From: Elusimicrobiota bacterium
GTDB taxonomy: Bacteria > Elusimicrobiota > Elusimicrobia > UBA1565 > UBA9628
NCBI GenBank assembly: GCA_035534315.1
Contig: DATLSD010000059.1
Location: 5,369 to 69,368, forward strand
Reading direction: 5' to 3'
DNA length: 64,000 nt
In this document: in pieces, positions 9,274 through 40,589 of the stretch
Numbering within the stretch: position 1 is the first letter of the stretch
Layout: every line of letters begins with the position of its first letter
Program-made: the position numbers and the translations under genes
Notes under the pieces: model-generated
What the model was told of the DNA's origin: nothing
What the model saw: only the letters and a program-made list of their open reading frames with translations
The model's database searches: none

Positions 9274-10248
9274 TTATTTTCCTTTCTTGATGATCTGCTC
9301 GAGCTCGTGGGGCAGGGCGAAGTGCATGTCCTCCTCCACGGTCTCGAACTCCTCGACCTGCGTGACGCCGAAGTGATCGCGGCAGTACTTGACCGTCTCC
9401 TGCACCAAAATCTCCGGGGCCGAGGCGCTGGCGGTCAGGCCCAGCGTGTGCACGCCCGCGAGCCACTCTTCCTTGATGCCGGAAGCCCGCTCGATGAGGT
9501 GGGAGTTGACGCCCTGGCCGCGCGCCACTTCGCATAGGCGGAGCGAGTTGGAACTGTTGGGCGCGCCCAGCACCAGCAAGAGATCCACGCGCGGGACCAT
9601 GGCCTTGACCGCGTTCTGGCGGTTCTGCGTGGCGTAGCAGATGTCGTCCTTGGCCGGCGGGCGCAGGTTGGGAAAACGCTTCTTCAAGACCTCGACGATC
9701 TGCTTGGTGTCGTCCAGGGATAAAGTCGTCTGGGTGAGGTAGGCCACCTTGGCCGGATCCTTGACCTGCACGGTCAAGGCTTCCTCGGGCGTGCCTACGA
9801 TTTGGATGTGGTCCGGAGCCTCGCCCATGGTGCCGATGGCTTCGACGTGCTCGGCGTGGCCGATGAGGATGATGGAGAACCCGCGCTTGGCGAGAGCAAT
9901 GGCTTCCAGATGCACCTTGGTCACCAGCGGGCAGGTGGCGTCGATGATCTTCAAGTCGCGGTTCTTGGCTTCCTGCTCCACCTGGGGGGCCACGCCGTGC
10001 GCCGAGAAAACCAGCCAGGAGCCTGCCGGGACTTCCTTCAAGTCCTCGACGAACACCGCGCCCTTGGCGCGCAGCTCGTCCACGACGTAGCGGTTGTGGA
10101 TGATTTCGTGGCGGACATAGACCGGCTTGCCGCAGATTTCGAGCGCTTTCTCCACCACGTCGATGGCGCGCACCACGCCGGCGCAAAAGCCGCGCAGCTT
10201 GGCCAGCACCAGCTTGTCGATTTTGACCTTCGTTTGCGTTTCAACCAT
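9274..10248 (-). CDS. ispH: 4-hydroxy-3-methylbut-2-enyl diphosphate reductase
   Basis: 324-aa ORF with a typical IspH/LytB sequence (RGFCAGVVRAI, HEIIHN, SAHGV, ATCPLVTKVH, nSSNS). Confidence 0.95.
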   Translation of the reverse strand: MVETQTKVKIDKLVLAKLRGFCAGVVRAIDVVEKALEICGKPVYVRHEIIHNRYVVDELRAKGAVFVEDLKEVPAGSWLVFSAHGVAPQVEQEAKNRDLKIIDATCPLVTKVHLEAIALAKRGFSIILIGHAEHVEAIGTMGEAPDHIQIVGTPEEALTVQVKDPAKVAYLTQTTLSLDDTKQIVEVLKKRFPNLRPPAKDDICYATQNRQNAVKAMVPRVDLLLVLGAPNSSNSLRLCEVARGQGVNSHLIERASGIKEEWLAGVHTLGLTASASAPEILVQETVKYCRDHFGVTQVEEFETVEEDMHFALPHELEQIIKKGK

Positions 10249-10263
10249 GGGGTGTCTCCAATC

Positions 10264-12177: not shown

Positions 12178-13113
12178 TTAACGATCCCTCGCAATCACGT
12201 AATCGGCCAAGTCGTGGAGCATCTTGGCCTTTTGTCCGAACGGCGAAATCTTGCGGTGCGCCTGCGCGACGAGCGCGCGGGCCTTGGCGCGGGCCTTGGG
12301 AAGGCCGTAGAGCGCGGCGTAGGTCAGCTTCTGGTTCTGCGCGTCGGAGCCGTTCTTGCCCAGCTTCTTCTTGTCCCCGACCACGTCCAGGATGTCGTCC
12401 GCGATTTGAAAGGCCAAGCCCATGGCGAAGCCGTACTCGCGCAGGGCTTTGCGCTTGGCCGAAGAGGCCTTGGTCAGCACGGCGCCGGCCTCCAGGCTCG
12501 CGGCGATTAAGGCGGCGGTCTTTCTCCGGTGGATTTGCTCCAAGGCGCGCGCCGGGTCAAAGCCGTGGTTCTTGCCCTTCCACTCCTCAGCCTCCAAATC
12601 CGCCACCTGCCCGCCCACCATGCCCTGCGTTCCGGCGCCCTGGGCCAGCACGCGGATGAGTTCCGCGGTCGAGCGGGCGTCCAGGCCCAGCTCCTGGGCG
12701 TTGTCCGCCGCGGCCTCGAAAGCGTAGGTTAAGAGCCCGTCGCCGGCCAAAATCGCCATGGCCTCGCCGAAGACCTTGTGGTTGGTGGGCTTGCCGCGGC
12801 GCAAATCGTCGTCGTCCATGGCCGGCAGATCGTCGTGGATGAGGGAATAGGTGTGGATCATCTCCAGCGCCGCGGCGGCCCTGGCCACGCGCTCGGGCTT
12901 TTCGCCGCAGGCCTCGGCCGCGGCCATCACCAGGATGGGGCGCAGGCGCTTGCCGCCGGCGAAAATCGAATAACGCATGGCTTCGCGCACGGTCTTGGGC
13001 TCGCCGCTTTTGGGCTTGAAGAGCTTGGCCAAAGCCTTGTCCGCCAAGGCCAAGCGGCTCTTGAGATAAGATTCAAGCGCGGTCATGGTTTGCTTCCCAT
13101 TTCCTTCGGTCAT
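12178..13113 (-). CDS. ispA: farnesyl diphosphate synthase (polyprenyl synthetase family)
   Basis: The first Asp-rich motif, [21 protein letters not shown], matches the E. coli IspA sequence as I recall it. The second motif is FQIADDILD. The start at 13113 was chosen because it forms an ATGA overlap with the hpnG stop; an alternative ATG lies at 13086. Confidence 0.9.
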
Positions 13114-13838
13114 AGGCACGGGAGAAACTCCTGTAGGAACTCGGACAACACGCCCATGGCCCGGCGCTGGCGCCGCCCCAAGGACCAAAGCCGGACGAGG
13201 CTTCCCGCGTTGGCCGCGGCAAACTTGACGAGGCTTGCGGCGTCCTCGCCGGCAGGAACTCTCGAGGGCAGTTCTTCGTCAAGCTCATCTAAAATCACGC
13301 GCAGGGCCAGGGCCGGAACGCCGCGGCCTCTGGCCCAGCGCCGCACGGCGGCCGTCTCCATGTCCACGGCCAGTGCGCCGGTCTCTTCGCCCAGGGCCCT
13401 TTTTTGCGCGGGCGACGCGACGCCGTCTGAATTGACCACGCCGCCTAAATGCAGGGCCGCTCCGGTTTTTTTCGCGGCCGCGCGGGCGGCGTCCTTCCAG
13501 CGGGAGTGCTCATCGGGAATGTCCGCGACGATGCTGTCGGATTTGGCTTGAGCGTTTAAGGCGCCGGCCAGGCCGACGCTCAAGACGCGGGAAAGTTTTT
13601 CAGCGGGAAGAATCGTTCCTAGCGCGCGGGACGCGTTGTCCGCGCCCATGCCGGTTTTGACCAGCAGGACGGGCGTTTCTTGAACGCGGCCCGAGAACAG
13701 AAAAGTTCCGGCGGAAACAAGTTTCAGCCGCCGCGCCAAGGGCGCTGCTTCCCAGCGCGTCGCCGCGCACAGGAGAACCGCGCCGGTCCGCTCGGCCGGC
13801 GTCTGGGAAAGTTCCGGAGCTTCCGCCATCTCGATCAT
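13110..13838 (-). CDS. hpnG: hopanoid-associated phosphorylase (PNP/UDP family)
   Basis: 242-aa ORF with nucleoside-phosphorylase-like motifs ([19 protein letters not shown]). It sits between hpnA and ispA inside the hopanoid operon. Confidence 0.8.
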
Positions 13839-14866
13839 GCCGGGGTCAAATCCTGCGCGGCCGCGGCGGCGCGGCCTTTGACGTAGCTATGGTCAGTGAA
13901 ATAGCGCACGGCTTCCTTGAGCGCTTCCTCGGCCGGGCGGGGGGAATATCCCAGTTCCCGCTTGGCCTTGGATGAGTCAAACCACATGTAGTGCTTGGCC
14001 ATGCGCACGGCGTCCAGCGGCGCCAAGGGCTCGCCGCCGAAAATTCCCGCGCGGGCGCTGTCTATGGCCGCGAAAGCGTAGGCCACGGCGTATGGCGTCT
14101 TGAACTTGGGGGGCTTGGCGCCGGAAATCTTGGCGATGAGGAGCAGGATGTCCTTCAAAGTGAGGTTCTCGCCGCCCAAAATGTAGCGTTCGCCCACGCG
14201 GCCCTTCAAGGCGGCCAGGAGATGCCCCTGCGCCACGTCCTTGACCGCGACGATGTTTAATCCCGTATCGATGTAGGAAGGCATGCGACCGCTCAAAAAA
14301 TCCACCACGATTTTTCCCGTGGGCGTGGGCTTGACGTCGTAGGCGCCGATGGGCGCGGCGGGGTTGACCACTACGACGGGCCGTCCCTTGGCGGCCAAGT
14401 CCAAAACGGCGTTCTCGGCTAAAAATTTAGATTTCTTGTACGCGCCTACGATGGTCTCGGGGCCCGGATAATGGGAGCTCTCGTCGGCGGGGGTCTTGTC
14501 CGCCCGGACTTTAACCGCGGCCACGCTCGAGCAGTGCACCACGCGCTCGGCGCCCGCCTTGGCCGCGGCCTCGACCACGTTGATGGAACCCTGCACGTTG
14601 GCGGCCAGCATTTTCTCCGGCTTGGGCACCCAGACGCGGTAGTCGGCCGCGACATGGAAGACATAGCGCGCGCCCGCGGCGCCGCGGGCGAGGCTTTCCG
14701 GCGAGAGCAGATCGCCCTCGACGATGTCCACGTCCAGTCCCGCGAGATTTTTCCGGTTGGAGCCGGGGCGGGCCAAGGCCTTGACCTTGAAGCCCTTGTC
14801 CAGCAGCAGGCGGACCAGGTTGGCGCCGACGAAACCCGTGCCGCCGGTGACGAAAACGGTGTCCAT
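13835..14866 (-). CDS. hpnA: NAD-dependent epimerase/dehydratase, hopanoid-associated sugar epimerase type
   Basis: The start was moved to ATG 14866 (MDTVFVTGGTGFVGANLV, a Rossmann GxxGxxG). It overlaps the hpnH stop by 1 nt. A YxxxK motif (YKKSK) is present. Confidence 0.8.
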   Translation of the reverse strand: MDTVFVTGGTGFVGANLVRLLLDKGFKVKALARPGSNRKNLAGLDVDIVEGDLLSPESLARGAAGARYVFHVAADYRVWVPKPEKMLAANVQGSINVVEAAAKAGAERVVHCSSVAAVKVRADKTPADESSHYPGPETIVGAYKKSKFLAENAVLDLAAKGRPVVVVNPAAPIGAYDVKPTPTGKIVVDFLSGRMPSYIDTGLNIVAVKDVAQGHLLAALKGRVGERYILGGENLTLKDILLLIAKISGAKPPKFKTPYAVAYAFAAIDSARAGIFGGEPLAPLDAVRMAKHYMWFDSSKAKRELGYSPRPAEEALKEAVRYFTDHSYVKGRAAAAAQDLTPA

Positions 14867-16011
14867 CAAGCGCGCGGCGTGAGAGAGCCCTCCTCGCTCT
14901 TGGTTTGGGAAGCGGCGGGCGCGGCTGCCGCCACGGTTTCTTCGTAGCTCGCGTCCGGCCGGCGCGGGTAGGCGCGCTTGGCCTTTAAGGGGCCGTGGAT
15001 GGAGGCGTAGTCCTTCACCAGGTCGAAGAACCGGCTCCAGCTGGAAAATCCGTCCTTGACCGCGGTGGGCTCGAAGCCGCAGTGGGTCATGCAGTTGGCG
15101 CACTTGGGATTGCCCGACGCGTGGCCGTACTGCGACCAGTCCGTGGTCTCCAAAAGCTCCTTGTAGGTCTTGGCGTAGCCCGCGTCGGCCATCAGGTAGC
15201 AGGGCTTCTGCCAGCCAAAGACGTTCCGGAGAGGCAGGCCCCAGGGCGTGCAGTCGTAGTCGCGCTTGCCTTCCAGGAAGTCCAGGTAGAACGGGCTGTG
15301 GTTGAAGTCCCAGCCCTTCGTGCGCCAGTCCTTCAAGGTCTCGCGGAACCAGGCCTTGGTCTGCTCGTTCTTGAGGAAGATGTCCTGCTGAGGCGCCTTC
15401 TCGTAGGCGTAGCCGGGGGAGATCATCATGCCGTCGGCGCCCAAGGCCATCACCTCGTCGAAGAAGCGGCGGAACTCGTCCGAGCTCTCGCCCTGGAAGA
15501 TGGTGGTGTTGGTCATGACGTTGAAGCCCTTGGACTTGGCGAGCTTAATCGCCGAAACCGCGGTCTTGTAGACTCCGTCGCGGCAGACCGCTCGGTCGTG
15601 GGTCTTTTCCAGGCCGTCCAAGTGGATGGAGAAGATGAGGTTGGGGCTGGGCTTGAACTTGTGGATGTTGCGCTCGAGCAAGATGGCGTTGGAGCAGAGA
15701 TAAATGAACTTGCCGCGCTCGATGAGCCCGTCGACGATGCGCCCGATTTCCGTGTGGACCAGGGGCTCGCCGCCGGCCACGGTCACCACGGGCGCGCCGC
15801 ACTCCTCGGCCGACTCCCAGCACTCCTCGGGGGTCAGGCGCTTGCGCAGGATGTCGGTGGGATACTGGATCTTGCCGCAGCCCGCGCACTCGAGGTTGCA
15901 GGCGAAGAGGGGCTCGAGCATCATCACGACCGGATATTTCTCGACGCCCTTTAACTTCTGGGCGACGAGATATTTGAAAACGGACATTTGCATCTGCCAA
16001 GGGGAAGGCAT
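14866..16011 (-). CDS. hpnH: adenosyl-hopene transferase (radical SAM)
   Basis: 381-aa ORF with the radical SAM motif CNLECAGCGK close to the N-terminus. It lies directly downstream of shc. Confidence 0.9.
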   Translation of the reverse strand: MPSPWQMQMSVFKYLVAQKLKGVEKYPVVMMLEPLFACNLECAGCGKIQYPTDILRKRLTPEECWESAEECGAPVVTVAGGEPLVHTEIGRIVDGLIERGKFIYLCSNAILLERNIHKFKPSPNLIFSIHLDGLEKTHDRAVCRDGVYKTAVSAIKLAKSKGFNVMTNTTIFQGESSDEFRRFFDEVMALGADGMMISPGYAYEKAPQQDIFLKNEQTKAWFRETLKDWRTKGWDFNHSPFYLDFLEGKRDYDCTPWGLPLRNVFGWQKPCYLMADAGYAKTYKELLETTDWSQYGHASGNPKCANCMTHCGFEPTAVKDGFSSWSRFFDLVKDYASIHGPLKAKRAYPRRPDASYEETVAAAAPAASQTKSEEGSLTPRA

Positions 16012-16037
16012 GGTTTATTCTCCTGGTGCCGGCCGCA

Positions 16038-18203
16038 TTAGATTGCGGCCGGCGTGCCGTCAGCGGCCGCGGATTCCGCGCCAAAATCCCTCTCCTGTTT
16101 CTTGAGAAGCTTGAGATAGGTTCCCAAGGCTTGGAGTGGGAAATAGCGGCGGTACATGGTGTATTCGAGGTAGAAAACTTTGGGGAATCCCGTGCCTGTG
16201 TATTCGGTCTCATCCCATGAGCCGTCCTGCTTCTGGGTCGCGACGAGGTGCGCCATGCCGCGGGCGACAGAGTCGTCCATGACGCCGGCGGCCATGAGCC
16301 CCATGACGGCCCAGGCGGTCTGCGACGGCGTGGAGGGGCCGCGGCCCTTCTTGGACGTGTCCGCGTACGTTTCGCAGGTCTCGCCCCAGCCGCCGTCTTC
16401 TTTTTGCACGGACTTAAGCCAGGCCACGGCTTTTTGGATGTAGGTCTGGCTCATGTCCTCTTCGATGGCGGCCAAGCCCCGCAGGACCTGCCAGGTGCCG
16501 TAAATGTAGTTGACGTTCCAGCGGCCGAACCATGAGCCGTCCTCTTCCTGGTTCTTGCGGATGAAGCGCACGGCTTTTTCCACGCAGGCGTAGCTCCGGT
16601 CGTAGCCGACGTAGCCCAGAAATTCCAGCACGCGCCCGGTGACGTCCACGGACGGCGGATCGATCATCGCGTTATGATCGGCGAAGGGAATTTTGGTGAA
16701 AATCGCCTTGGTGTTGTCCTTGTCGAACGCGGCCCAGCCGCCGTCGGCGCACTGCATGGAGAGCACCCAGTTGAGGCCCCGCAGGCAGGCTTTTTCGCGC
16801 GCCTGCGAGAGGGGCTCTTCCAGGTGGACGTGGCGCAGGGCCAGCATGACCATGGCGCTGTCGTCGACGTCCGGGTAAAATGGGTTGTTGAACTCGAAGT
16901 ACCAGCCGCCCGGCTGGCCCTGGGGGTTGTTGACCTTCCAGTCGCCGACGACCTTGACCTCCTTGGAGATGAGCCAGTCGGTTGCCTTGACCAGCGCGGG
17001 GTTGTCGCTGGCCAGGCCGGACTCCGCCAGCGCGATGACGGAAATCGCGGTGTCCCACACGGGCGACCAGCTCGGCTGCATCTCGAGCTTGGAGCCGGGA
17101 ACCTCCAGAAATTCCAGCGCGCGCAGCTGTTCCATCAGCCGCGGGTCGGTGTCGGAGTATCCCAGGCACTTCATGGCCATGATGGTGTTGACGATGCCGG
17201 GGTAGATGGCGCCCAGGCCGTCGGAGTCCTGCAGGCGCTCCAAAATCCAGTCCTCGGCCAGGCGCAGGGCCCATAGGCGGATCCAATGGCCGCCGTGGCC
17301 TTCGATGGTCTTCAAGCCCTTGTCCCACCAGAGGAAAAACGAAGTCCAGGAGATGAACCCGTGCGGAGCCACCGCCTCCTTAAGAGGGACGTGGCGCCGG
17401 GAGTCGGGGAAGAGTTCGTCCAAGACCGCGTGCGGCGGGCATGAAATCGGCGGGCGGTTCGCCCAGACCACGCTCAAGGGGATGACGATGGAGCGCGTCC
17501 AGGACGAGACCTGGTAGATGTTGAAGTAAAACCACTTGGGGAAGAGCATGAGCTCGGGTGGAATCGTGGGCACGCCGCGCCAGTCGTATTGGCCGAACAC
17601 GGCCATGTAAAACTTGGTGTAAGTGTTGACTTTGTGGATGCCGCCCAGTTCCTTGATCCGGCGCCGGGCCGCGGCCAAGCGCGGATCATCCTGCGAATGG
17701 CCGGCGAACTTGAGCGCCCAATAGGCTTTGACCGTGGCGGAAATATCCGAGGGTCCGTGGCGGTAGATTGGCCAGCCGCCGTCGGGGAGCTGCTCGCTCA
17801 GGATGTGATCGGCCAAGCCGCGGATTTTGGGGGAATCGCCCCGGCCTAGGAAGTTGAACAGCATGACAGTGTCGGATTCCAGCGTCGTGTCGGCCCGCAG
17901 CGGCTCGTACCAATAGCCGTCTTCCTGGTTCTGTATGCTCAAAAGCGAGTTTTGCGCGCGCGCGATGCTTTCCTTAAGCTCCCTGGGAGCGTCGGCGTGC
18001 GCGTGGGAGCCCGAACGGGAGGGCTTCAAGTTTTCCGTCCACCCGTCCGGTTTTTTGTCGGCGGCGAGCCAATTGGAGACGAGATTCTTGATCATCGGCG
18101 GCAACTGATTATAGCGAATTCCGAGGGAGGCGTTCAATTTCGACTCCGAACGCGCAGCGGCGTCGTCTTCGGGCTTCTCGGGTCCGGACGGGCGTGGCGA
18201 CAT
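16038..18203 (-). CDS. shc: squalene-hopene cyclase
   Basis: 721-aa ORF with the catalytic DxDD motif (DVDDSAMV) and repeated QW motifs (QxxDGSW/GGW). Confidence 0.95.
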   Translation of the reverse strand: MSPRPSGPEKPEDDAAARSESKLNASLGIRYNQLPPMIKNLVSNWLAADKKPDGWTENLKPSRSGSHAHADAPRELKESIARAQNSLLSIQNQEDGYWYEPLRADTTLESDTVMLFNFLGRGDSPKIRGLADHILSEQLPDGGWPIYRHGPSDISATVKAYWALKFAGHSQDDPRLAAARRRIKELGGIHKVNTYTKFYMAVFGQYDWRGVPTIPPELMLFPKWFYFNIYQVSSWTRSIVIPLSVVWANRPPISCPPHAVLDELFPDSRRHVPLKEAVAPHGFISWTSFFLWWDKGLKTIEGHGGHWIRLWALRLAEDWILERLQDSDGLGAIYPGIVNTIMAMKCLGYSDTDPRLMEQLRALEFLEVPGSKLEMQPSWSPVWDTAISVIALAESGLASDNPALVKATDWLISKEVKVVGDWKVNNPQGQPGGWYFEFNNPFYPDVDDSAMVMLALRHVHLEEPLSQAREKACLRGLNWVLSMQCADGGWAAFDKDNTKAIFTKIPFADHNAMIDPPSVDVTGRVLEFLGYVGYDRSYACVEKAVRFIRKNQEEDGSWFGRWNVNYIYGTWQVLRGLAAIEEDMSQTYIQKAVAWLKSVQKEDGGWGETCETYADTSKKGRGPSTPSQTAWAVMGLMAAGVMDDSVARGMAHLVATQKQDGSWDETEYTGTGFPKVFYLEYTMYRRYFPLQALGTYLKLLKKQERDFGAESAAADGTPAAI

Positions 18204-32711: not shown

Positions 32712-34121
32712 CTAGGAAATCATGAAGCTCCAGGCGGCATAGCGCCCGGAGTGCGACAAGGAGACGCCCCAGTCCTGGACTTTGCCGCGCAGAAGCACTT
32801 TGGGGATGCCGCCCTCGTCCGCGAAGGCCAGCAGGGCGGGCGAGGGGATTTCATCGGAGGATTTGGCGATGAATTCCAGGCACTTGCCGCGGGCGAAGTC
32901 ATGGGCGTCTTGGCCCGCGGGAACTTCCGCGACTTCCCAAAGGACGTCTCCGGGCGTCTCGTCGTCTCCGATGAATCCGCCGCGCAGGACCGCGACGCAG
33001 TGGATTTTGTCCTCGTCTTCGTGGGTGAAGCGGATGTCGAAGCGCGCTCCGGTGGGAAGGTGGACGATTCTCTTTCGAAACAAATCGGCTTCCAGCATCC
33101 GGAAGGCTCCCGACGGCGTCTGGATGCCGGACTGGGCCAGCGCCTTGTGCGCGGCTTCCTTGGCCGCGATGAACTTGCACGCCTCGGCAAAGCGCGCGAA
33201 CCCCGGCGCGACGGCCTCCAGGGACTTCATTTCGCGCCCGGTCAGGTGCCGAGCCGCCCATTCGGGGTCCATCTCGCCGCTGGCCGCGTCGAAGTGCTCC
33301 GCGAGCGCCGGGGATTTGAGATCCAGGACGTCGTTGCCGCCGCAGTTTTTGGGCAGCGGGCTCGCCGCGAACCATTCTTCCTGCAGTTCGGCGAGTTCGT
33401 CGAAGAGCCGCTGGGCGACGGCGCGCGGCGCGGTTTCTCCCGGCAAGACGGCGGGGATGAGCCGGCCGTAGGAGCGAAACGTCTCGCCGCGCCGGGGCAT
33501 CGCCGTGGTGTAGAGCTGGCTTTCGCCGCGCACGTAGACGCAGAGAAACTTGGCGTCAGGGACCTCCAGGGCCAGGCGCCCCAGGAAATCCTTGGGCCGG
33601 TGGCGCTCCAGCCAGCCCGAGCGCGCGCGGCTCGCTTCCGGATACATGAAAACGGACTCGCCCCGCTTTAAGAGCCATTCGCACTTGGCGAAGACGTTTT
33701 TCCGCCAGCGCTCCGAGGCCTCGTCCTCGCCTTCGCGCAAAAACGGGATGCAGCGGCACAAGTACATCAGCGCGCGCACGGAGATTTTTTTGGGCCAAGA
33801 TCCCAGGTGGTAATAGTTGCGGTATTCCGGGGTGGACCAGGGAATCAGGCGCGTGCGGTGGAGCTTGCGCCAAGGCACCACGGCCGCGAAGACCAGGAAG
33901 GAGTCGATGAGGGTCAGGTGGTTGGCCGCCCAGAACAGAGGGCCGTCGTGGGCGTCGAGCTCCTTCCAGATTTTTTCCTGGAACTCGCGGGCGTTGGAGA
34001 AGCGGTAGCCAAAGCGCCAGCGAAAGACGACGCGGATGAAGGCGTAGAGAGGGTAGGTTGCGAGCAGCGAAAGCCAGCGCTGCAGCCGCAGGCTCGCGAC
34101 GTCCCAAACATCCAAAGTCAT
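32712..34121 (-). CDS. fusion protein: PlsC/LPLAT-type acyltransferase (N-terminal) plus 4'-phosphopantetheinyl transferase (C-terminal)
   Basis: The N-terminal half has acyltransferase motifs NHLTLID (HX4D) and FMYPEASRARSG (PEGTR-like). The C-terminal half has PPTase motifs GNDVLDL, FIAAKEAAHKAL and VSLSHSGRYAAW. Confidence 0.7.
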   Translation of the reverse strand: MTLDVWDVASLRLQRWLSLLATYPLYAFIRVVFRWRFGYRFSNAREFQEKIWKELDAHDGPLFWAANHLTLIDSFLVFAAVVPWRKLHRTRLIPWSTPEYRNYYHLGSWPKKISVRALMYLCRCIPFLREGEDEASERWRKNVFAKCEWLLKRGESVFMYPEASRARSGWLERHRPKDFLGRLALEVPDAKFLCVYVRGESQLYTTAMPRRGETFRSYGRLIPAVLPGETAPRAVAQRLFDELAELQEEWFAASPLPKNCGGNDVLDLKSPALAEHFDAASGEMDPEWAARHLTGREMKSLEAVAPGFARFAEACKFIAAKEAAHKALAQSGIQTPSGAFRMLEADLFRKRIVHLPTGARFDIRFTHEDEDKIHCVAVLRGGFIGDDETPGDVLWEVAEVPAGQDAHDFARGKCLEFIAKSSDEIPSPALLAFADEGGIPKVLLRGKVQDWGVSLSHSGRYAAWSFMIS

Positions 34122-34129
34122 TAGGTTTG

Positions 34130-34170
34130 GGACGTCCCGAACCTACGCATTTCCGATGTTCGGGACGTCC
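34130..34170 (-). other. intercistronic 13-bp perfect stem-loop 8 nt upstream of the acyltransferase-PPTase start codon
   Basis: GGACGTCCCGAAC (34130-34142) pairs with GTTCGGGACGTCC (34158-34170) across a 15-nt loop. No T-run follows on the coding (minus) strand. Confidence 0.5.
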
Positions 34171-34193
34171 TTGGACGAGAGCAAAGAGGCGGC

Positions 34194-35099
34194 TTAGGCC
34201 AGGGCGCGCTCGGCTTCCTGCAGGCTCTGGCGCACAATCGCCCGGATTTCCTCGATTTTGGCTTGAATCACGGGCGTGCGCTCGGCCGCTTCCCGGGCGA
34301 CCGCGCTCGAGACCGCGAGTTTTTGCGCGCTCATCCTAAGCCGGGTGCGCACCTCGGCTTCCTCGGCGCGCAAAGACGCCAGGCGCTCGGCGTCGTTGGT
34401 CGCGGAGACGCCCTTGATTTTGTCCTCGATGACGCTCAGCTCCTGGCGGAGGGAATCGTAGGCGGCCTTGTCGTTCTGGCTGATTTTCTGCCGGGACGCG
34501 GTGAAGGCTGCGGCGTCGCCGATGAGGGCCTCGTAAGCCTTAGCTTGATCGCACAAGGCCTTCAAGTTCGCCTTGGCCTCGTCTTTCTCCGGGCCGGCGA
34601 GCTTCTCGATGCGCGCGACGAGCTTCTTCAAGGCGTCGTTGGTCCGGTAGCCCTCGCCGACCGAGGTGACGTAGGCGAAGGAGACGACCTTGGACAAATA
34701 GGCTTCGTTCTTGGGCATGTGGCCCAGGTCCACGAGCATCTTGATGGAGAGGCCCGGCGTGGCCGCGGTGGCGTCCTGGCCTTCCAGGATGCGCAGCTTG
34801 CCCAGCTCTCCGTCCTCGAGCTTGAATTCGGAGCTTCCCTCGGAGAGCGGCACGCGCTTGGTCTTCTTGGTCAGGAACTGCCGCTCGATGGACATGGTGA
34901 TGTCGGCGAGGTTGGAGGATTCGATGCCCATGCCGATGATGTGGCCCAGAAACGGCGTGTTGGCGTCGGCCTGGGACCAGTTGGCCTCGTTGGTGGCGTA
35001 TTTCCTGACGCCGGCGATGATGCGCTTCTCCGCGTCTTCGGGGGTGATCGCGTTTAAATCCGTCGCTTCGATGGTCGCTTCCTTGCGTTTGAATGCCAT
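34194..35099 (-). CDS. hypothetical protein: ~170-aa N-terminal globular domain plus ~130-aa C-terminal coiled coil
   Basis: The start was moved to ATG 35099, which has a strong RBS (AAGGAGGAAGAC). The translation is protein-like with no motif I recognise. The C-terminus is heptad-like and rich in Ala, Glu, Lys and Arg. Confidence 0.7.
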   Translation of the reverse strand: MAFKRKEATIEATDLNAITPEDAEKRIIAGVRKYATNEANWSQADANTPFLGHIIGMGIESSNLADITMSIERQFLTKKTKRVPLSEGSSEFKLEDGELGKLRILEGQDATAATPGLSIKMLVDLGHMPKNEAYLSKVVSFAYVTSVGEGYRTNDALKKLVARIEKLAGPEKDEAKANLKALCDQAKAYEALIGDAAAFTASRQKISQNDKAAYDSLRQELSVIEDKIKGVSATNDAERLASLRAEEAEVRTRLRMSAQKLAVSSAVAREAAERTPVIQAKIEEIRAIVRQSLQEAERALA

Positions 35100-35109
35100 G
35101 TCTTCCTCC

Positions 35110-36417
35110 TTATTTCCCGTCCCAGCGCTTGAAAAGCAGGCAGCCGTTGACGTCTCCGAAGCCGAACGACGCCTTGATGACGTATTCCAGCCGGGCCTGC
35201 CGCGCTTGGCGCGGGATGCTGTTTCCAATTTTAGCAATTTGCGGGTGGATCTCGTCGCTGTTGATGGAGGGGTGAACGTAGCCGTTGGCCAGTTGATCGG
35301 CGGCCGCGACGCACTCAAGAGCTCCGGCCGCGCCCAGGCAGTGGCCGATCATGGACTTGGTCGACTGGATGAGCGGGAATTTCTCGGGCGGCAGCTCCAG
35401 GGCCTTCATCCAGCTCGCGATTTCGCGCGGGTCGGCCCCGGTCGAGGTGAGGTGCCCGTTGATGAGCGAAATTCGGTCCGGAGAAACGCCGGAATCCTCG
35501 ATGACGCGCCGGATGCAGCGCGTCACGCCGTCCGGGTTGGGGAAGGTCATGGTGCCGCCGTCTCTTTGCCCGCCCGAGTTGCAAAACGCGGAGATAAGCT
35601 CGCAGATGATTTCGGCGCCGCGCTTTTGCGCGGACTCAAGGGTCTCCAAGCGCAGTACGCCGGCGCCCCCCGCCGGCACGAAGCCGCAGGCGCCCGCGCC
35701 CATGGGCTGCGAGCCTTTTTCCGGAGCCTCGTTGAAGCGCGAGCAGAGCACGTCGCGCATGGCGTCGAAGCCCGCCCAGATGCCGAAGTGGGTGCCTTCC
35801 GCGCCGCCCGCGTACATGGACTCGGCAAATCCCATCTGGATGTGCTTCCAGGCCTCGAAAATCGCCTCGGTGCCGGTGTTGCAGGCGGAGCTGTTGGAAC
35901 TGGTCTGCCCGCCCAGGCCCAGGAAGCGCCCCACGGCCACGGAGACCGAACTGTTCATCACCTTGGGCACGATGTCCGCGCCCATGGGGATGGTGCCGCG
36001 GCCGGGCTCCTGCGCCTTGGCCTCGGCCATGACCGGAGCGAGCTCCTGGAAAATCGTGTCCATGCCGCCGATGCCGCAGCCCATGATGGCGCCGGAATTC
36101 CAGTCGACCGGGCTGTTCTGATAGTTTTTGGAGTCGAGCGAAGCGCCCGAGTTTTTCGCGCACTCGACCGCGGCCAGCACAGCGTAAATCATGGCCTCGC
36201 TCATCTTGTGGTAGTCGGCCTCGGGGAGGACCTTCAAGATGGCGTCCTCGTCGGTGGGGGGAATGCCGCCGATTTGGCAGGCGAAGTTGAGCTCCTTTAG
36301 CTCCTCGTGCCGGCTGATGCCGGACCGGCCGGCCTTCAAGGCCTCCCGGAACGCCGGAACGCCCACGCCGTTGGGCGCCACCGCGCCCAACCCCGTCACC
36401 ACCACTCTTTTTCTCAT
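35110..36417 (-). CDS. beta-ketoacyl-ACP synthase (KAS I/II, FabF/FabB-like)
   Basis: The start was moved to ATG 36417 (MRKRVVVTGLGAV), forming an ATGA overlap with the upstream dehydratase stop. The Cys-His-His triad context is present (SSACNTG, NGHLTSTGA, SMIGHCLGAAG). Confidence 0.9.
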   Translation of the reverse strand: MRKRVVVTGLGAVAPNGVGVPAFREALKAGRSGISRHEELKELNFACQIGGIPPTDEDAILKVLPEADYHKMSEAMIYAVLAAVECAKNSGASLDSKNYQNSPVDWNSGAIMGCGIGGMDTIFQELAPVMAEAKAQEPGRGTIPMGADIVPKVMNSSVSVAVGRFLGLGGQTSSNSSACNTGTEAIFEAWKHIQMGFAESMYAGGAEGTHFGIWAGFDAMRDVLCSRFNEAPEKGSQPMGAGACGFVPAGGAGVLRLETLESAQKRGAEIICELISAFCNSGGQRDGGTMTFPNPDGVTRCIRRVIEDSGVSPDRISLINGHLTSTGADPREIASWMKALELPPEKFPLIQSTKSMIGHCLGAAGALECVAAADQLANGYVHPSINSDEIHPQIAKIGNSIPRQARQARLEYVIKASFGFGDVNGCLLFKRWDGK

Positions 36418-36905
36418 TTTAGCGTCTCCAAATTTTTGGGCACCCAGAGGCCCGATGTCTTGCCGGAGAAAATCTCCTCGCCGTCCTTGGGTCCGCCCAT
36501 GAATTGAATCTCCACGTAGCTCACCAGCTTGTTGTTGCGGAAATATCCGTCCTCGCCGAAGGTCGCCTGGGCCGCCACCTTGTCGCCCGGCCGCACCATC
36601 TTCTTGAACGCGCCGTGCTCGACTTCGGTGAAAAATCCGACCAAGGTCTTGAACTCCTCCGGAGAGATCCTGCTGCTCAGGAGGTAAATGCACCAGGCCA
36701 CGTTGCCCGTCTGCGCCGCCATCTCGATGAGCTTGACGCCGGGCACCACGGGATTGCCCGGGAAATGCCCGGCGCAGTCCTCGTCCTTCCAGGTGTAAGC
36801 GGTGAGGATGTGCTCTTCGTCCAACTCCAGAATCTCGTCGACAAAGCGCATGGGCCTTTGCTGCGGCACCAAGGCCAGGACTTCCTGCGGCGTCAAAGCG
36901 TTCAT
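36414..36905 (-). CDS. FabZ/FabA-like hotdog 3-hydroxyacyl-ACP dehydratase
   Basis: 163-aa ORF with the motif HFPGNPVVPGVKLIEMAAQ and the lead-in RPMRFVDEILEL. Confidence 0.85.
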   Translation of the reverse strand: MNALTPQEVLALVPQQRPMRFVDEILELDEEHILTAYTWKDEDCAGHFPGNPVVPGVKLIEMAAQTGNVAWCIYLLSSRISPEEFKTLVGFFTEVEHGAFKKMVRPGDKVAAQATFGEDGYFRNNKLVSYVEIQFMGGPKDGEEIFSGKTSGLWVPKNLETLK

Positions 36906-36915
36906 AGCCGGACCT

Positions 36916-37644
36916 CTACAGCCCCATGCCGCCGTCGACGTTCAAGACGGCGCCGTTTAGGTAGTCGTTTTCGATGAAGTGGCAGACGGCTTGGGCCACG
37001 GCCTCGGGCGCGCCGAAATTTCCCAGCGCGATTTGGGAGAGAATCCTGTTCTTGACGTCGGGCGCGATGGCCTCGGTCATGGGCGTTTGGATGAAGCCGG
37101 GCGCGACCGCGTTGACGCGCACGCCGCGCGGGCCCAACTCCGCGGCGAACTGCTTGGTCAGGGCTTCGAGGGCGGCCTTGGACGCGCGGTAGAGCGCGCT
37201 GCCCACCAGGGCCGTGCGCGCCAGCACCGAGCTCACGTTCACGATGACGCCCGAGCCCGACTTGGCCATCTCCTTGCCGAAGTCGCGCATCAAAAAGGCC
37301 GGGCTCTTCAAGTTGACGCCGAGGATGGCGTCGAACGAGGCTTCCTCGATTTGCAGCGCGGGCTCGTGCGGCTTGTCCACGCCGGCGTTGTTGACCAGGA
37401 TGTAGGGCGCGCCTTCCTTCATGACGGCGTCCAGGAGCGCCTGGCGGCCGGCGGCCGAGGACAAATCGGCCTGGACCACGAAGGACTCGGGAATCTCCGC
37501 GCGCAGGGCCTCGGCCGACTTCTGGTTGCCGCGGCAGTGCAGGCAGACGCGGATTTCGCCCTCGGATTTTTCATGGACGGCCTTGGCCACGGCGCGGCCG
37601 ATGCCGCCCGAGGCGCCCGTCACCACCGCGATGTCTTTAGGCAT
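36916..37644 (-). CDS. fabG: 3-oxoacyl-ACP reductase (classical SDR)
   Basis: 242-aa ORF with the TGASGGIG cofactor motif, NNAG, and catalytic YRASK (YxxxK). Confidence 0.9.
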   Translation of the reverse strand: MPKDIAVVTGASGGIGRAVAKAVHEKSEGEIRVCLHCRGNQKSAEALRAEIPESFVVQADLSSAAGRQALLDAVMKEGAPYILVNNAGVDKPHEPALQIEEASFDAILGVNLKSPAFLMRDFGKEMAKSGSGVIVNVSSVLARTALVGSALYRASKAALEALTKQFAAELGPRGVRVNAVAPGFIQTPMTEAIAPDVKNRILSQIALGNFGAPEAVAQAVCHFIENDYLNGAVLNVDGGMGL

Positions 37645-37738
37645 GATGGCTCCTGGTCAAGATGACTCCGCTAAAGGCCCCGGCTGGCCGTGGCCATGGC
37701 CGGGCCCAGCCCTAAATAGCTGGAAAAACGCGATATAA

Positions 37739-37885
37739 GATAGGCAAATGATAGGCAGCAGATAGGCAGATAGGGTCTGGAGATAGGGTCTGGATAGTGG
37801 GTGGCTAGTAGGTGGCTAGGCCTAGATAGCCAGGTGGCTAGGGGGTGGCTAGGGGGGTAGATAGGGGGTAGACAGGGGGTAGATA
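37739..37885. repeat. array of cascading short direct repeats with ~11-bp phasing
   Basis: The array contains GATAGGCA x3 (37739, 37750, 37761) and GATAGGGTCTG x2 (37769, 37782). It then contains GTGGCTAG x4 (37801, 37812, 37834, 37845) and GGGGGTAGA[T/C]A x3 (37853, 37864, 37875). Local GC is lower than in the flanks. Confidence 0.8.
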
Positions 37886-37979
37886 GCGGCCGGACAGGGT
37901 ACGAGCAATTACTAGACGTCATGATTCCAGCCCAAAAACGGGAACTTTTGCCGACCTTGATCGTATAAAGGGATGCGAC

Positions 37980-38051
37980 TGCCGGGTAGCTTAACGGTAA
38001 AGCATCCGTCTGTCAAACGGAGCGATGCGGGTTCGACTCCCGCCCGGGCAA
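37980..38051 (+). tRNA. tRNA-Asp (anticodon GTC), atypical acceptor stem, no encoded CCA
   Basis: A hand-folded cloverleaf fits. Acceptor is TGCCGGG/CCGGGCA and the D arm is GCTT-AACGGTA-AAGC. The anticodon arm is TCCGT-CTGTCAA-ACGGA with U33 and A37. The variable loop is GCGAT and the T arm is GCGGG-TTCGACT-CCCGC. There is a U1-A72 pair, one G-G mismatch at 5:68, and discriminator A. Confidence 0.7.
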
Positions 38052-38058
38052 CCCGCAA

Positions 38059-38099
38059 GGAGGCCCGATCTGCTCCGGTCGGACGGAGATCGGGCCTCC
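38059..38099 (+). terminator. 13-bp perfect hairpin immediately 3' of the tRNA (processing or termination structure; no T-run)
   Basis: GGAGGCCCGATCT (38059-38071) pairs with AGATCGGGCCTCC (38087-38099). The loop can extend the stem (TCCG/CGGA). Confidence 0.35.
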
Positions 38100-38179
38100 G
38101 CCTGCGGAAGCGGAGAACGTTTTTAATAAACGCTTCCTTTCCGCTCGTGCTGGGCGCAGCATATCGCGCCCAGCGCCTA

Positions 38180-38208
38180 TTGACAAAAATACCGTCTGCT
38201 GATACACT
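38180..38208 (+). promoter_or_regulatory. near-consensus sigma70-type promoter in the tRNA/KASIII intergenic region
   Basis: TTGACA (38180-38185), 17-nt spacer, TACACT (38203-38208). A 9-bp hairpin (38149-38174) lies directly upstream. Confidence 0.4.
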
Positions 38209-38215
38209 GATTTTT

Positions 38216-38268
38216 GACAGACGGATGCAAGCTACCCAAGCCCCGGGAAACCGGGGCTTTTCGTTTTT
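38216..38268 (+). ncRNA. candidate ~50-nt small RNA antisense to the 5' half of the adjacent tRNA-Asp, ending in an intrinsic terminator
   Basis: 38216-38237 is the exact reverse complement of tRNA nt 38002-38014 plus 37984-37992. It is followed by GCCCCGG-GAAA-CCGGGGC (38240-38257) and TTTTCGTTTTT (38258-38268). Confidence 0.3.
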
Positions 38269-38279
38269 AGCGCCAGGCC

Positions 38280-39278
38280 TCACTGCGCCTCCATGTAGCC
38301 GCCGCCCCAGGCCAGGCCCGAGCCCAGCACCGCGTAGACGATTTTGTCGCCTTTGCGCAGCTTGTCCAAATTTTGCGCGATGACCGAAGGGCAGCCCGCG
38401 GCCGCGATGTTGCCCTGCGTGTGGACATTGCGCAGGTGCTTCTCCGGAGGCAGATGCAGGTGGCCGATGATGGAATCCTGCATGACGTAGTTGGCCTGGT
38501 GCGCCACGGTGTAGGCGTCCTCGGCGTAGAGCCCCTTTTTCTGCGCGATGTCCTCGAACATCTCGCAGGTCTTGCGGATGGAAAACTCCCGCACCGCCGC
38601 GCCGTTCTGAGCGAAATGCCCGGCCGCGTCGATTGTGATGTCGTCGGCGCCCCTGGGATCGGTCTCGAAAATCATGGGCTCGACCGAGAGCCGCCCCGCG
38701 TGGCGGGCCGAGAGGACCTCCGCGGCCGCGCCGTCGCCCCAGATATATCCGTCCACGCTCTTGGCGGAGTAGTCCGTGCGCGTGGTGTAGGCGCTGGCCT
38801 GCACGCACAGGATAAATTCCGGCAGGCGCGGCTCCATGTCCGCGAGGATCCGCATGTGCCGCGCGAACGAGGAGCAGGCGCTGTTGACGTCGCAATGGGG
38901 CCCCGAGCCGACGCCCAGGGCCTTGGCGATGAGGTTCGCGGTCGAAGGGATGGTCTCAAAGGGCGTGTCGGTATTGGCGATGACCAGGCCGATTTTTTCG
39001 GCCGGCACGCCGGCCTGGGCCAGGGCTTTTTTGGCGGCCTTCGCGCCCATGGCCACTGGCGTCTCGCCGCGGGCGCGCGCGTGAATCATCGCTTGGACCG
39101 GGTTTTGGTTCTTGGTTTTGAGGATGTAGTCCTTGCTCAGGACCGAGTAGCGCTTGTAGATGCCCAGGCGCGACTTGACCCACTCCGGGCCGCGCTCCAG
39201 GCCCACCTCGTCGTGGAGAAACTCGTTGGAAATTTCCGTTTCGGGGAGATAGCAGCCCATCCCCAGGATGGAGAGCAT
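38280..39278 (-). CDS. 3-oxoacyl-ACP synthase III (FabH-like KASIII)
   Basis: The start was moved to ATG 39278 (MLSILGMGCYLP). Catalytic Cys is in NSACSSF, His in AHQAN and Asn in QGNIAAAG. Confidence 0.9.
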   Translation of the reverse strand: MLSILGMGCYLPETEISNEFLHDEVGLERGPEWVKSRLGIYKRYSVLSKDYILKTKNQNPVQAMIHARARGETPVAMGAKAAKKALAQAGVPAEKIGLVIANTDTPFETIPSTANLIAKALGVGSGPHCDVNSACSSFARHMRILADMEPRLPEFILCVQASAYTTRTDYSAKSVDGYIWGDGAAAEVLSARHAGRLSVEPMIFETDPRGADDITIDAAGHFAQNGAAVREFSIRKTCEMFEDIAQKKGLYAEDAYTVAHQANYVMQDSIIGHLHLPPEKHLRNVHTQGNIAAAGCPSVIAQNLDKLRKGDKIVYAVLGSGLAWGGGYMEAQ

Positions 39279-39282
39279 GCGG

Positions 39283-40257
39283 CTAAATCCCGGAGATGGA
39301 CTCGCCGCCGTCGACCGTGATGACGGCGCCGTTGGTCCAGGCGAGGCCCGGCAGGCACAGGGTGTAAATCGTCTCGGCCACGTCATCGGGCGTGGTCAGG
39401 CGGTGAAAGGGGTTGCGCAGGCGGGCTTGCGCCTTCATCAAGTCGAAGTTGGGAATCGCGTTGCCGGCGGGGGTGTCCGTGATGCCGGCCTGGAGCACGT
39501 ATGAGCGCGCGCCGTAGGGCGCCAACTCCAGGGCCATGGCGCGGCAAGACGCTTCCAGGGCGCACTTGGCGGCCGAGACCGCGGCGTAGCCGCGCCAGGC
39601 GATCTCGTTGCCTTCGGAGGTCATGGCGACCAGGCGCGCGTCCTTGGTCAGCAGGCCGTCCTTTAAAAGCTCGCGGCCCCAGAGCAGGTAGTCGTAGCCC
39701 ATCATCCAGACGGTTTTCTGCAAATCTTCCTCGCCGAGAAGGGCGTCCTTGTAGGGAATCCTGCTCTCGGCCAAGGTGTGGAGCGCGTCGCAGCCCTTTT
39801 GGTGGAACGCGTCGTTGACGGCTTTCTTGAGCGCGTCGGGAGAAACCTGGACGCCTTGGGCCGAGAGCGCCTCGGAGAGCCCCTTGAGGGCCTGGCCGCG
39901 GAAGTCGGGGGCTTTGGCGTCCACCATGAGCTTGCAGGCGCCGGCGGCGATGGAATGCAGGAAGAGGTGGACCTTGCCCTGGCCCGCGCGCTGCGCGATG
40001 CTCTCGAAGACCTCGCCGCGGCCGTCCTCGTCGAAGAGGTTGACGTTGTGCGCGGCGAACTCGACGCCTTGCGCGCGGATTTCGTCGAAGTGGGGCTTGA
40101 TGACCGTCTCGACCGCGCCTTCCTTGTCCTTATGCGCGACGAGGATGTTCAGGCCGGCCCGGGCCAGGCGCTTGGCCGCGGCCAGGCCGAAGCCCGAGGA
40201 GCCGCCCAGGATCACGGCCCATAGTCCGGAGCCTTCGAAACGGCGTTCTTTTTCCAT
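39283..40257 (-). CDS. SDR-superfamily enoyl-ACP reductase-like protein (FabI/FabL-type Y-x6-K)
   Basis: The start was moved to ATG 40257 (MEKERRFEGSGLWAVILGGSSGFG). The catalytic spacing YAAVSAAK is Tyr-x6-Lys, as in enoyl reductases, not the YxxxK of ketoreductases. An insertion of roughly 60 aa is present relative to classical SDRs. Confidence 0.7.
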   Translation of the reverse strand: MEKERRFEGSGLWAVILGGSSGFGLAAAKRLARAGLNILVAHKDKEGAVETVIKPHFDEIRAQGVEFAAHNVNLFDEDGRGEVFESIAQRAGQGKVHLFLHSIAAGACKLMVDAKAPDFRGQALKGLSEALSAQGVQVSPDALKKAVNDAFHQKGCDALHTLAESRIPYKDALLGEEDLQKTVWMMGYDYLLWGRELLKDGLLTKDARLVAMTSEGNEIAWRGYAAVSAAKCALEASCRAMALELAPYGARSYVLQAGITDTPAGNAIPNFDLMKAQARLRNPFHRLTTPDDVAETIYTLCLPGLAWTNGAVITVDGGESISGI

Positions 40258-40304
40258 AAAATGGACCGCTTGCTTGGCGCCGCAAGGGCCTGCCGAGCGG
40301 CGGC

Positions 40305-40589
40305 CTACTTCTGGACTTCGAGAAGCTTCTTCTTGACCAGATCGCCGATGAGCGCGGCCGCGTCCTTTTTGGCCTTGGCCTCGTCCACGTCGAATTCCGC
40401 GCAGACGGCTTCCACGACGGCATCCACATCCGCGCCTTCGCCCAGCTTCTCCCAAATGACGACGCCGACCTCGTTGAGGGAAAAATATTCGCTCGATTCG
40501 AGATCCAGGATGACGGCTTCCTTGTCCACCTGGCGCCACGCGGCGCGCTCGGCGTGCTTGTACTTCACGGAGTCGTTTTTAGTCGCCAT
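40305..40589 (-). CDS. PqqD-family (RRE-type peptide-binding chaperone fold) protein
   Basis: 94-aa ORF. WRQVDKEAVILDLESSEYFSLNEVGVVIWEKL followed by an acidic helical tail matches the PqqD consensus. An AAGAGG RBS lies upstream. There is no ACP DSL motif. Confidence 0.75.
   Translation of the reverse strand: MATKNDSVKYKHAERAAWRQVDKEAVILDLESSEYFSLNEVGVVIWEKLGEGADVDAVVEAVCAEFDVDEAKAKKDAAALIGDLVKKKLLEVQK

Follow-up and report, generated by a model that had tools for sequence, protein, structure and literature searches.

A divergent, probably housekeeping type II fatty-acid synthase operon of Elusimicrobiota with a candidate carrier derived from acyl carrier protein and an acyltransferase-phosphopantetheinyl transferase fusion

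A 64,000-nucleotide stretch of DNA from an Elusimicrobiota bacterium (assembly GCA_035534315.1, contig DATLSD010000059.1, positions 5,369 to 69,368 of the forward strand), hereafter the window, contains a minus-strand cluster of genes resembling those of type II fatty-acid synthase (FAS II). The genome, referred to as G000, is metagenome-assembled (MAG), 1.81 Mb in size and 70 % complete; G001 and G003 are genomes of the same genus. An earlier note on this DNA had read the cluster as a dedicated pathway for a specialised lipid beside a housekeeping FAS, lacking both an acyl carrier protein (ACP) and the malonyl transacylase FabD. Translations and Pfam and NCBIfam searches placed all eight minus-strand genes listed in the note, in the order stated there, and the same genes are given by the public gene call on identical metagenome contigs. 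A plus-strand tRNA-Asp gene and a repeat array are also present at the site claimed for them. In the direction of minus-strand transcription the features are:

40305..40589, minus strand: PqqD/RRE-like protein of 94 aa (Pfam PqqD, E=2.5e-19)
39283..40254, minus strand: enoyl reductase (ER), a FabL/FabI-like short-chain dehydrogenase/reductase (SDR) of 323 aa with an insertion (adh_short_C2 and Enoyl_reductase PF12241)
38280..39275, minus strand: 3-ketoacyl-ACP synthase III (KASIII), a FabH-like initiating condensing enzyme (ACP_syn_III and ACP_syn_III_C)
37980..38053, plus strand: tRNA-Asp(GTC) between KASIII and KR (ARAGORN)
37737..37899, no strand assigned: array of short, phased repeats of 11-13 bp upstream of KR (TRF periods 11-13 and 22, scores 32-66)
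36916..37644, minus strand: ketoreductase (KR), a FabG-like SDR of 242 aa (TIGR01830)
36414..36905, minus strand: hotdog dehydratase (DH), FabZ-like, 163 aa (FabA PF07977)
35110..36417, minus strand: elongating ketosynthase (KS) of 435 aa with a Cys-His-His triad (TIGR03150)
34194..35099, minus strand: 301-aa protein (CC301) with a probable N-terminal ACP-derived domain and a C-terminal helical domain (structure models, profile intermediate)
32712..34121, minus strand: fusion of 469 aa joining a lysophospholipid acyltransferase (LPLAT, or AT; N-terminal, PF01553) to a phosphopantetheinyl transferase (PPTase; C-terminal, AcpS-like, ~215 aa)

Gaps between the genes are 50 nt (PqqD/ER), 7 nt (ER/KASIII), 635 nt (KASIII/KR), 10 nt (KR/DH), 10 nt (KS/301-aa gene) and 72 nt (301-aa gene/fusion). 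ATGA overlaps had been reported for several junctions; only one was found, between DH and KS at 36414-36417. The 301-aa gene is preceded by a strong Shine-Dalgarno sequence, AAGGAGG. The G+C content of the window is 60-67 %.

As the note had claimed, the cluster encodes a full condensation-reduction cycle: KASIII, KS, KR, DH and ER are all present with their motifs. Inspection of the translations showed that catalytic motifs are kept in KS (triad in SACNTG, INGHLTSTG and SMIGHCLGAAG), KASIII (Cys, His and Asn in ACSSF, HQAN and GNIAAAG), KR (YxxxK), DH (His/Glu) and the acyltransferase, and that the ER has the Y-x6-K motif ascribed to it (YAAVSAAK). A FabD with a GHSMG motif is encoded outside the window, at G000:C37:392-1240, so that KASIII, KR, DH, ER and malonyl transacylase, all with catalytic motifs, are encoded in the MAG. 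The description of the cluster as non-canonical was likewise confirmed, every enzyme scoring far below its NCBIfam equivalog cut-off. None of the KS, KASIII, KR and DH reaches the cut-off for FabF, FabH, FabG or FabZ: the KS scores 275 bits against 494 (TIGR03150), KASIII 160 against 249 (PRK09352) and 123 against 292 (FabH equivalog), KR 188 against 298 (TIGR01830) and DH 63-67 against 113 and 155 (FabZ models). The best NCBIfam match of the ER is FabL (100 bits, cut-off 328), and its best match in the Protein Data Bank (PDB) is Bacillus subtilis FabL (3oic, E=7e-15). The DH matches FabZ structures at E ~1e-13, and the KS aligns over its full length with FabF and FabB structures.

To place the KS, a tree was built with FabF and FabB references transcribed from structure alignments. 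This analysis revealed that the cluster enzymes form a single, separate deep clade (support 100/100, stem 1.42) that belongs to neither the FabF nor the FabB group.

We then determined the distribution of condensing enzymes. A tblastn search of the whole MAG found one KS and one KASIII, both in the cluster. The note had allowed that these might be the only fab genes of the genome; for the condensing enzymes this is what was found. Among 31 related genomes searched, the cluster KS (69-92 % identical) is the sole KS at E<=1e-10 in G001, G003, G005, G009, G012 and G013; completeness is 98 % for G001, 95 % for G003 and 99 % for G005. This sole-KS result covers MAGs that are 95-99 % complete; the one closed genome, CP096137, has the cluster KS, and its other KS domains occur only in a Pfa-like megasynthase. 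In the family as a whole (61 genomes), a FabF above the curated cut-off (641-651 bits) was found only in six genomes of one genus, g5. Outside g5, the family genomes have a cluster KS scoring 255-288 bits, and none of their KSs reaches the FabF cut-off; the small genomes contain no KS besides that of the cluster. The 301-aa gene follows the same division: it is present in this MAG and in 15 of the 15 non-g5 relatives sampled from the family, and in none of five g5 genomes. Canonical FabF, confined to one genus, and the cluster, found in all other genera, are mutually exclusive within the family. By the criterion set in the note, a sole KS and KASIII together with this exclusivity therefore refute, for this organism, the reading of the cluster as a dedicated pathway beside a housekeeping FAS.

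Remnants of a canonical system were found elsewhere. Canonical acpP is present in 29 of the 31 relatives and AcpS in 30 of 31. The acpP of G001 lies in an rpmF-fabG-acpP-rnc operon that contains no plsX, fabH, fabD or fabF. In the MAG itself no protein matched the ACP family PF00550, which leaves none in the window, and no close canonical FabG was found; the contig carrying rpmF-(plsX)-fabG-acpP-rnc, seen in sister genomes, is missing from the MAG. Canonical AcpS is encoded at G000:C43:13592-13909 and canonical FabZ at C9:8116-8586 (172 bits, above cut-off), making the cluster DH a second copy. The search for housekeeping fab and acpP genes that the note had proposed thus yielded acpP and fabG in the sister-genome remnant and acpS and fabZ on other contigs of the MAG. 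The cluster KR, a paralogue of the FabG gene adjoining acpP in relatives, shares 36 % identity with the canonical FabG of G001. LpxA and LpxD are also encoded; the cell therefore needs acyl-AcpP, which only the enzymes of the cluster are able to make. The FabZ gene of contig C9 belongs to an outer-membrane and lipid A block at G000:C9:2803-12451, with the gene order bamA-skp-lpxD-lpxC-fabZ-lpxA-lpxI-like-oxidoreductase-lpxB, in which FabZ, LpxA, LpxC and LpxD score above equivalog cut-offs and are the four genes confirmed by family models.

The cluster is a conserved operon. Genomes of 70 species, almost all of them labelled Elusimicrobia or Elusimicrobiota, encode the 301-aa protein, and the order ER-KASIII-KR-DH-KS-301aa-AT/PPTase is kept in ~65 of the 70 species loci, where it is usually closed by FabD; the co-occurrence across genomes that the note had suggested checking is thereby established. 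FabD is indeed absent from the window, as had been noted, and the tRNA does split the cluster; what the relatives show is that neither is a property of the system. FabD stands at the operon end in most relatives, and the tRNA-Asp in the KASIII/KR gap is absent from the same-genus loci L034 and L040 and from other genera. Both rearrangements are therefore recent and local. Among the related loci, the PqqD-like gene precedes ER only in L034 and L040, the ~65 others having none there; it is a genus-specific neighbour outside the conserved operon. The ancestral unit would thus have been a single operon, ER-KASIII-KR-DH-KS-301aa-AT/PPTase-FabD, from which FabD probably moved to another contig at the level of the genus; the PqqD-like gene would have been placed upstream at the same level, and the tRNA-Asp and repeats inserted in this species.

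Other insertions occur in the same genus: ~3 kb between KASIII and KR, with no tRNA, in G001 (L034:8958-11958) and ~1.3 kb between KS and the 301-aa gene in G003 (L040:7729-9001). The operon seems to be an insertion hotspot in this genus. In the window, terminator-like hairpins at 38096-38115 and 38238-38259 flank the tRNA-Asp gene. Just downstream of that gene, the interval 38180-38268 holds a promoter-like TTGACA-17-TACACT element (10/12) followed by the second, strong hairpin. Two tandem KASIII genes, 63-77 % identical to the window copy, are present in the operons of L043, L045, L055 and L096. In a divergent low-GC relative, the gene after FabD is a single open reading frame of >1833 aa combining biotin carboxylase, biotin carboxyl carrier protein and carboxyltransferase, i.e., a single-chain acetyl-CoA carboxylase (L110:11652-16867).

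The 301-aa protein itself has no Pfam, NCBIfam or PDB sequence match. All 252 homologues collected are annotated as hypothetical, and a search of 1.84 billion proteins yielded only 22 representatives of the family. Compared with PDB, a full-length family profile returned only coiled-coil noise. Conservation is high, with a mean column identity of 71-72 %; among 30 aligned sequences, down to 44 % overall identity, residues 1-145 contain 44 invariant positions. G58, I59, E60 and S61 and the helix that follows are invariant, and the segment GMGIESSNLADITMSIERQF resembles ACP helix II. The full-length AF2 model (mean predicted confidence, pLDDT, 84) has helices at 20-34 and 64-74, a hairpin at 75-101, helices at 115-124 and 132-135, and then five long helices that make up a C-terminal domain of ~160 aa. 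In Foldseek this model matched only generic helical bundles and BAR-like proteins (E>=0.06). When the N-domain was modelled alone (pLDDT 70.7), ~30 of 35 Foldseek matches in PDB were ACPs, with a target-normalised TM score of ~0.58-0.77 and E of 0.13-10; these included Escherichia coli AcpP, Thermus thermophilus ACP, Helicobacter pylori ACP complexes, an anammox-specific ACP and complex I subunits of 83-88 residues.

A link between this family and known ACPs is provided by a stand-alone 77-aa protein, P0260, which the N-domain profile finds at E=6e-5. It is 36 % identical to the 301-aa protein over 61 residues (pairwise BLASTP E=3e-13), scores 21.2 bits against PF00550, just above the gathering score of 20.8, and matches 89 ACPs in PDB. 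The register is constant in all alignments, of which three independent ones pair Ser61 with the ACP serine: Ser61 of CC301 corresponds to Ser44 of P0260 and to the pantetheine serine of ACPs, and the remote members P0257 and P0260 likewise keep the serine that opens helix II. P0260 (L109:2106-2339) is an ACP-like protein with a GINS site that bridges canonical ACPs and the 301-aa family. It is encoded on a 3.6-kb metagenome contig among small hydrophobic open reading frames, with cysS adjoining; these neighbours rule out its being a fragment of a frameshifted CC301 gene. From sequence and models we consider it very probable that residues ~15-135 of the 301-aa protein constitute an ACP-derived domain. 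The statement that the window holds no ACP is accordingly true of recognisable, PF00550-type proteins and probably false of the 301-aa protein. That this protein works as an acyl carrier is a narrower judgement, in which the sequence and the models tip the balance slightly in favour. Ser61, in its GIES context, would be the putative pantetheine site, and the carrier would take part in chain building or hand-off.

The gene after CC301 always encodes a PPTase domain. In the window it is the fusion, whose N-terminal part scores 26.8 bits against PF01553 (cut-off 23) and contains the HX4D motif as NHLTLID. The LPLAT domain is divergent (27-40 bits), with invariant N67, H68, T70 and D73, a PEG-like block YPEAxRxRSG and a hydrophobic N-terminus. 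In the fusion encoded by the window, the PPTase half has no Pfam match even at E<=10. Homologues 55-66 % identical to it carry PF01648, and most fusion homologues carry both PF01553 and PF01648 (among the best 120 of 168, 53-93 % identical and from Elusimicrobia where named). A profile of the PPTase domain matched 14 AcpS structures at E<0.01, the best being 3qmn (E=3.8e-7). The motifs GxD, KEA..K and S.SH are invariant, as are G14, D16, K73, E74 and K78. The dedicated PPTase proposed in the note is thereby identified, as a second one beside the housekeeping AcpS. In four distant genomes the 301-aa gene is followed by a stand-alone PPTase with no acyltransferase, which in one case starts two codons past the stop. 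The PPTase is kept next to the 301-aa gene even where the AT domain is missing; therefore the conserved core is the ACP-like protein and its PPTase. Such a pairing of an ACP-like protein with its own PPTase typically marks a dedicated carrier.

The AcpS-like domain encoded directly downstream probably activates the 301-aa protein, and the LPLAT domain probably transfers finished acyl chains to an acceptor that we take to be glycerol-3-phosphate or a lysophospholipid. The fusion would in this way couple chain synthesis with the building of membrane lipids in a genus devoid of PlsX and PlsY, both of which are absent from G000-G003, G005 and G012. Besides the fusion, no PF01553 protein was found in G012 and a single one in G005. 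Because PlsX and PlsY are absent and other PF01553 proteins are few, a role of the fusion as a glycerolipid acyltransferase is plausible from the sequences. Of the proposal that the chain is handed directly to a lysolipid-type acceptor for a specialised lipid, the hand-off thus remains plausible, given a PPTase-fused LPLAT; the specialised, accessory pathway is not supported. In G009, G011 and G013 (family f1) PlsY is present and PlsX absent.

We conclude, with a probability of about 0.68, that the cluster is the housekeeping and sole FAS II of this bacterium, with a 301-aa ACP-derived carrier and an LPLAT-PPTase hand-off. Several observations weigh against this reading. At 70 % completeness, absences in G000 are weak and the case rests on sister genomes, which leaves room for an accessory FAS-II-like pathway making a specialised lipid, the normal FAS II lying in the unassembled 30 % of the MAG. 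The divergent, paralogue-like enzymes, all under equivalog cut-offs, would suit such a pathway, as would the duplication of KR, DH and PPTase functions in the genome. Moreover, canonical FabF and the cluster coexist in three or four more distant genomes, among them G032, G033 and G035, with both on one 1.9-Mb contig in G032. In these FabF-bearing genomes the cluster has no AT domain, and in G032 and G033 no KASIII either, which suggests an accessory origin; the cluster may be accessory there, and perhaps was so ancestrally. For the bacterium studied here, however, we consider an accessory role improbable: neither the same-genus genomes (98 % and 95 % complete) nor near-complete genomes of five other genera contain another KS, the canonical operon of G001 is reduced to the four genes given above, FabF and the cluster exclude each other across the family, and an organism with LpxA and LpxD must make acyl-ACP somehow. 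The hand-off is weakened by the AT domain, which matches no solved LPLAT when the profile of the whole fusion is compared with PDB, and by the larger genomes of the family, which keep PlsX and PlsY and also keep the fusion, so that no simple replacement took place.

The carrier is open to a different objection. Since the cluster occurs together with canonical AcpP and AcpS, a second carrier is not strictly required; the enzymes could work on AcpP alone, with the 301-aa protein a degenerate ACP fold serving as scaffold, membrane tether or regulator, much like the structural use of mitochondrial ACP, and the fused PPTase-like domain inactive or serving AcpP. Neither the 301-aa protein nor its isolated N-domain matches PF00550 even at E<=10, and an hhalign comparison of the N-domain with a small set of aligned ACPs yielded no more than a local match over 23 columns (P=0.047, probability 1 %), in the right register. 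The Foldseek matches have E of 0.13 or worse, and the Ser61 loop has a pLDDT below 50 in the domain model. The N-domain is not acidic (pI 5.7 vs 4.1 for AcpP), a hairpin is inserted within the ACP-like domain, and the protein carries a further 160-aa helical domain. A scaffold with many partners would also fit the extreme conservation, and the whole-protein fold resembles only generic bundles and BAR-like proteins. We nevertheless regard such a non-carrier role as unlikely: the serine that defines a carrier is invariant at the N-terminus of helix II in 30 of 30 aligned sequences and in P0257 and P0260, CC301 is in every genome genetically tied to a PPTase whose Asp, Glu and Lys motifs are intact, also where the AT domain is missing, and a second PPTase would have little purpose if there were no second substrate. 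The housekeeping reading, with the 301-aa protein as a probable second carrier, is therefore retained.

How the system arose can be outlined from the KS tree. In the distant genomes that contain both systems, the cluster KSs nest in the Elusimicrobiota clade and the canonical FabFs group with genus g5. A reasonable scenario, which we infer from these placements, is an ancestor with both systems, of which g5 would have kept the canonical one and the rest of the family the cluster, losing fabH, fabD and fabF. The condensing enzymes, FabD and the sole enoyl reductase found would then represent a divergent lineage that displaced canonical fabH, fabD and fabF. A different situation was noted in the sister families f2 and f3 (G019-G027), most genomes of which have no type II KS at all. 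Their KS domains occur only in Pfa/PKS-like (polyketide synthase-like) open frames of 2000-2900 aa with AT and tandem ACP domains (e.g., G019:C34:15136-15978 and G024:C3:140356-141093), and these bacteria may make all their fatty acids by a megasynthase resembling polyunsaturated fatty acid synthase.

Comparison with known systems brings out what is shared and what is not. The canonical FAS II of E. coli and B. subtilis (plsX-fabH-fabD-fabG-acpP-fabF, fabZ, fabI/fabL, acpS) consists of the same discrete set of enzymes with intact motifs and likewise has a phospholipid acyltransferase gene linked to synthesis in an operon. In contrast to it, the cluster has a different gene order, enzymes under equivalog cut-offs, a KS clade of its own, and acpP and fabG located elsewhere; the 301-aa ACP-like protein and the LPLAT-PPTase fusion stand where the canonical operon has acpP and plsX. 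As modelled, the N-domain would share with ACPs (PF00550; AcpP, mitochondrial ACP/NDUFAB1, anammox ACP 7auf) helix I, a long loop and a serine starting helix II, but has GIES in place of DSL, a beta-hairpin of ~27 residues after helix II and a fused domain of ~160 aa. The C-domain of the fusion shares GxD...(F)AAKEAxxKA...S(L)SH with AcpS-type PPTases (PF01648); unlike AcpS (~120 aa) it is ~215 aa long and sits at the C-terminus of an LPLAT. Secondary-metabolite PPTases are similarly encoded in clusters as a second enzyme beside the housekeeping AcpS. With PlsC/PlsB-type LPLATs the fusion shares HX4D, the PEG-like block, the hydrophobic N-terminus and operon linkage to FAS; it is very divergent, and its profile matches none of the solved LPLATs.

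Aryl-polyene and other type II PKS-like clusters share with the operon a discrete KS, KR, hotdog DH and LPLAT, and the DH has weak ApeI/ApeP-like matches. They differ in having a pair of KS and chain-length factor (CLF), small ACPs, LolA/MMPL export, a glycosyltransferase and a thioesterase, all of them missing from the cluster; the cluster KS is the sole KS in its genome. Neither the operon of the window nor the 70 related loci contained a KS/CLF pair, small ACPs or LolA/MMPL genes. Because the operon includes an enoyl reductase, its chains would be saturated. Assignments to aryl-polyene, ladderane, Ole or DarB-type pathways were rejected, as they yielded only weak family scores and no matching accessory genes. 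A PqqD/RRE-dependent system for ribosomally synthesised and post-translationally modified peptides (RiPPs) was also rejected: the neighbours of the PqqD-like gene are an FtsJ/TlyA-like methyltransferase and the ER, and no radical SAM or RiPP maturase with a precursor peptide adjoins it. Elsewhere in the window, at 9274-18203 on the minus strand, lies an isoprenoid/hopanoid block with ispH, dxs, a polyprenyl synthase, an HpnH-like radical SAM gene (DUF3463) and squalene-hopene cyclase (shc), which bears out a remark in the earlier note that the organism also makes hopanoids.

Few bacterial proteins are as conserved or as thoroughly studied as ACP, FabF, FabH and FabD, which are also targets of antibiotics. 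In this free-living bacterial lineage a separate deep clade appears to have taken the place of the condensing enzymes and FabD, and an ACP-derived protein of ~300 residues missed by annotation appears to have been added, as well as an acyltransferase-PPTase fusion. Our search of the literature found no description of this cluster, of the LPLAT-PPTase fusion, which on that basis is unprecedented, or of the 301-aa family. If the carrier function is true, the definition of ACP would be widened, standard annotation would be seen to miss a central protein of lipid synthesis, and the operon would offer a natural case in which carrier activation, chain synthesis and lipid assembly are physically coupled. 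The results also caution that a lipid cluster which seems "ACP-less" in a MAG may in fact have an ACP and need not be accessory. We interpret the cluster as probably a housekeeping FAS II peculiar to this lineage, with an atypical protein as its probable second carrier. More tentatively, it is possible that most of one Elusimicrobiota family bases its essential synthesis of fatty acids and membrane lipids on a displaced, deep-branching FAS II with two carriers, AcpP and a new class marked by an ACP fold, the hairpin, the GIES site and the five-helix domain, that the AcpS-like domain pantetheinylates this new carrier, and that activation and off-loading are united on one polypeptide, which would replace PlsX and PlsY in the small-genome genera.

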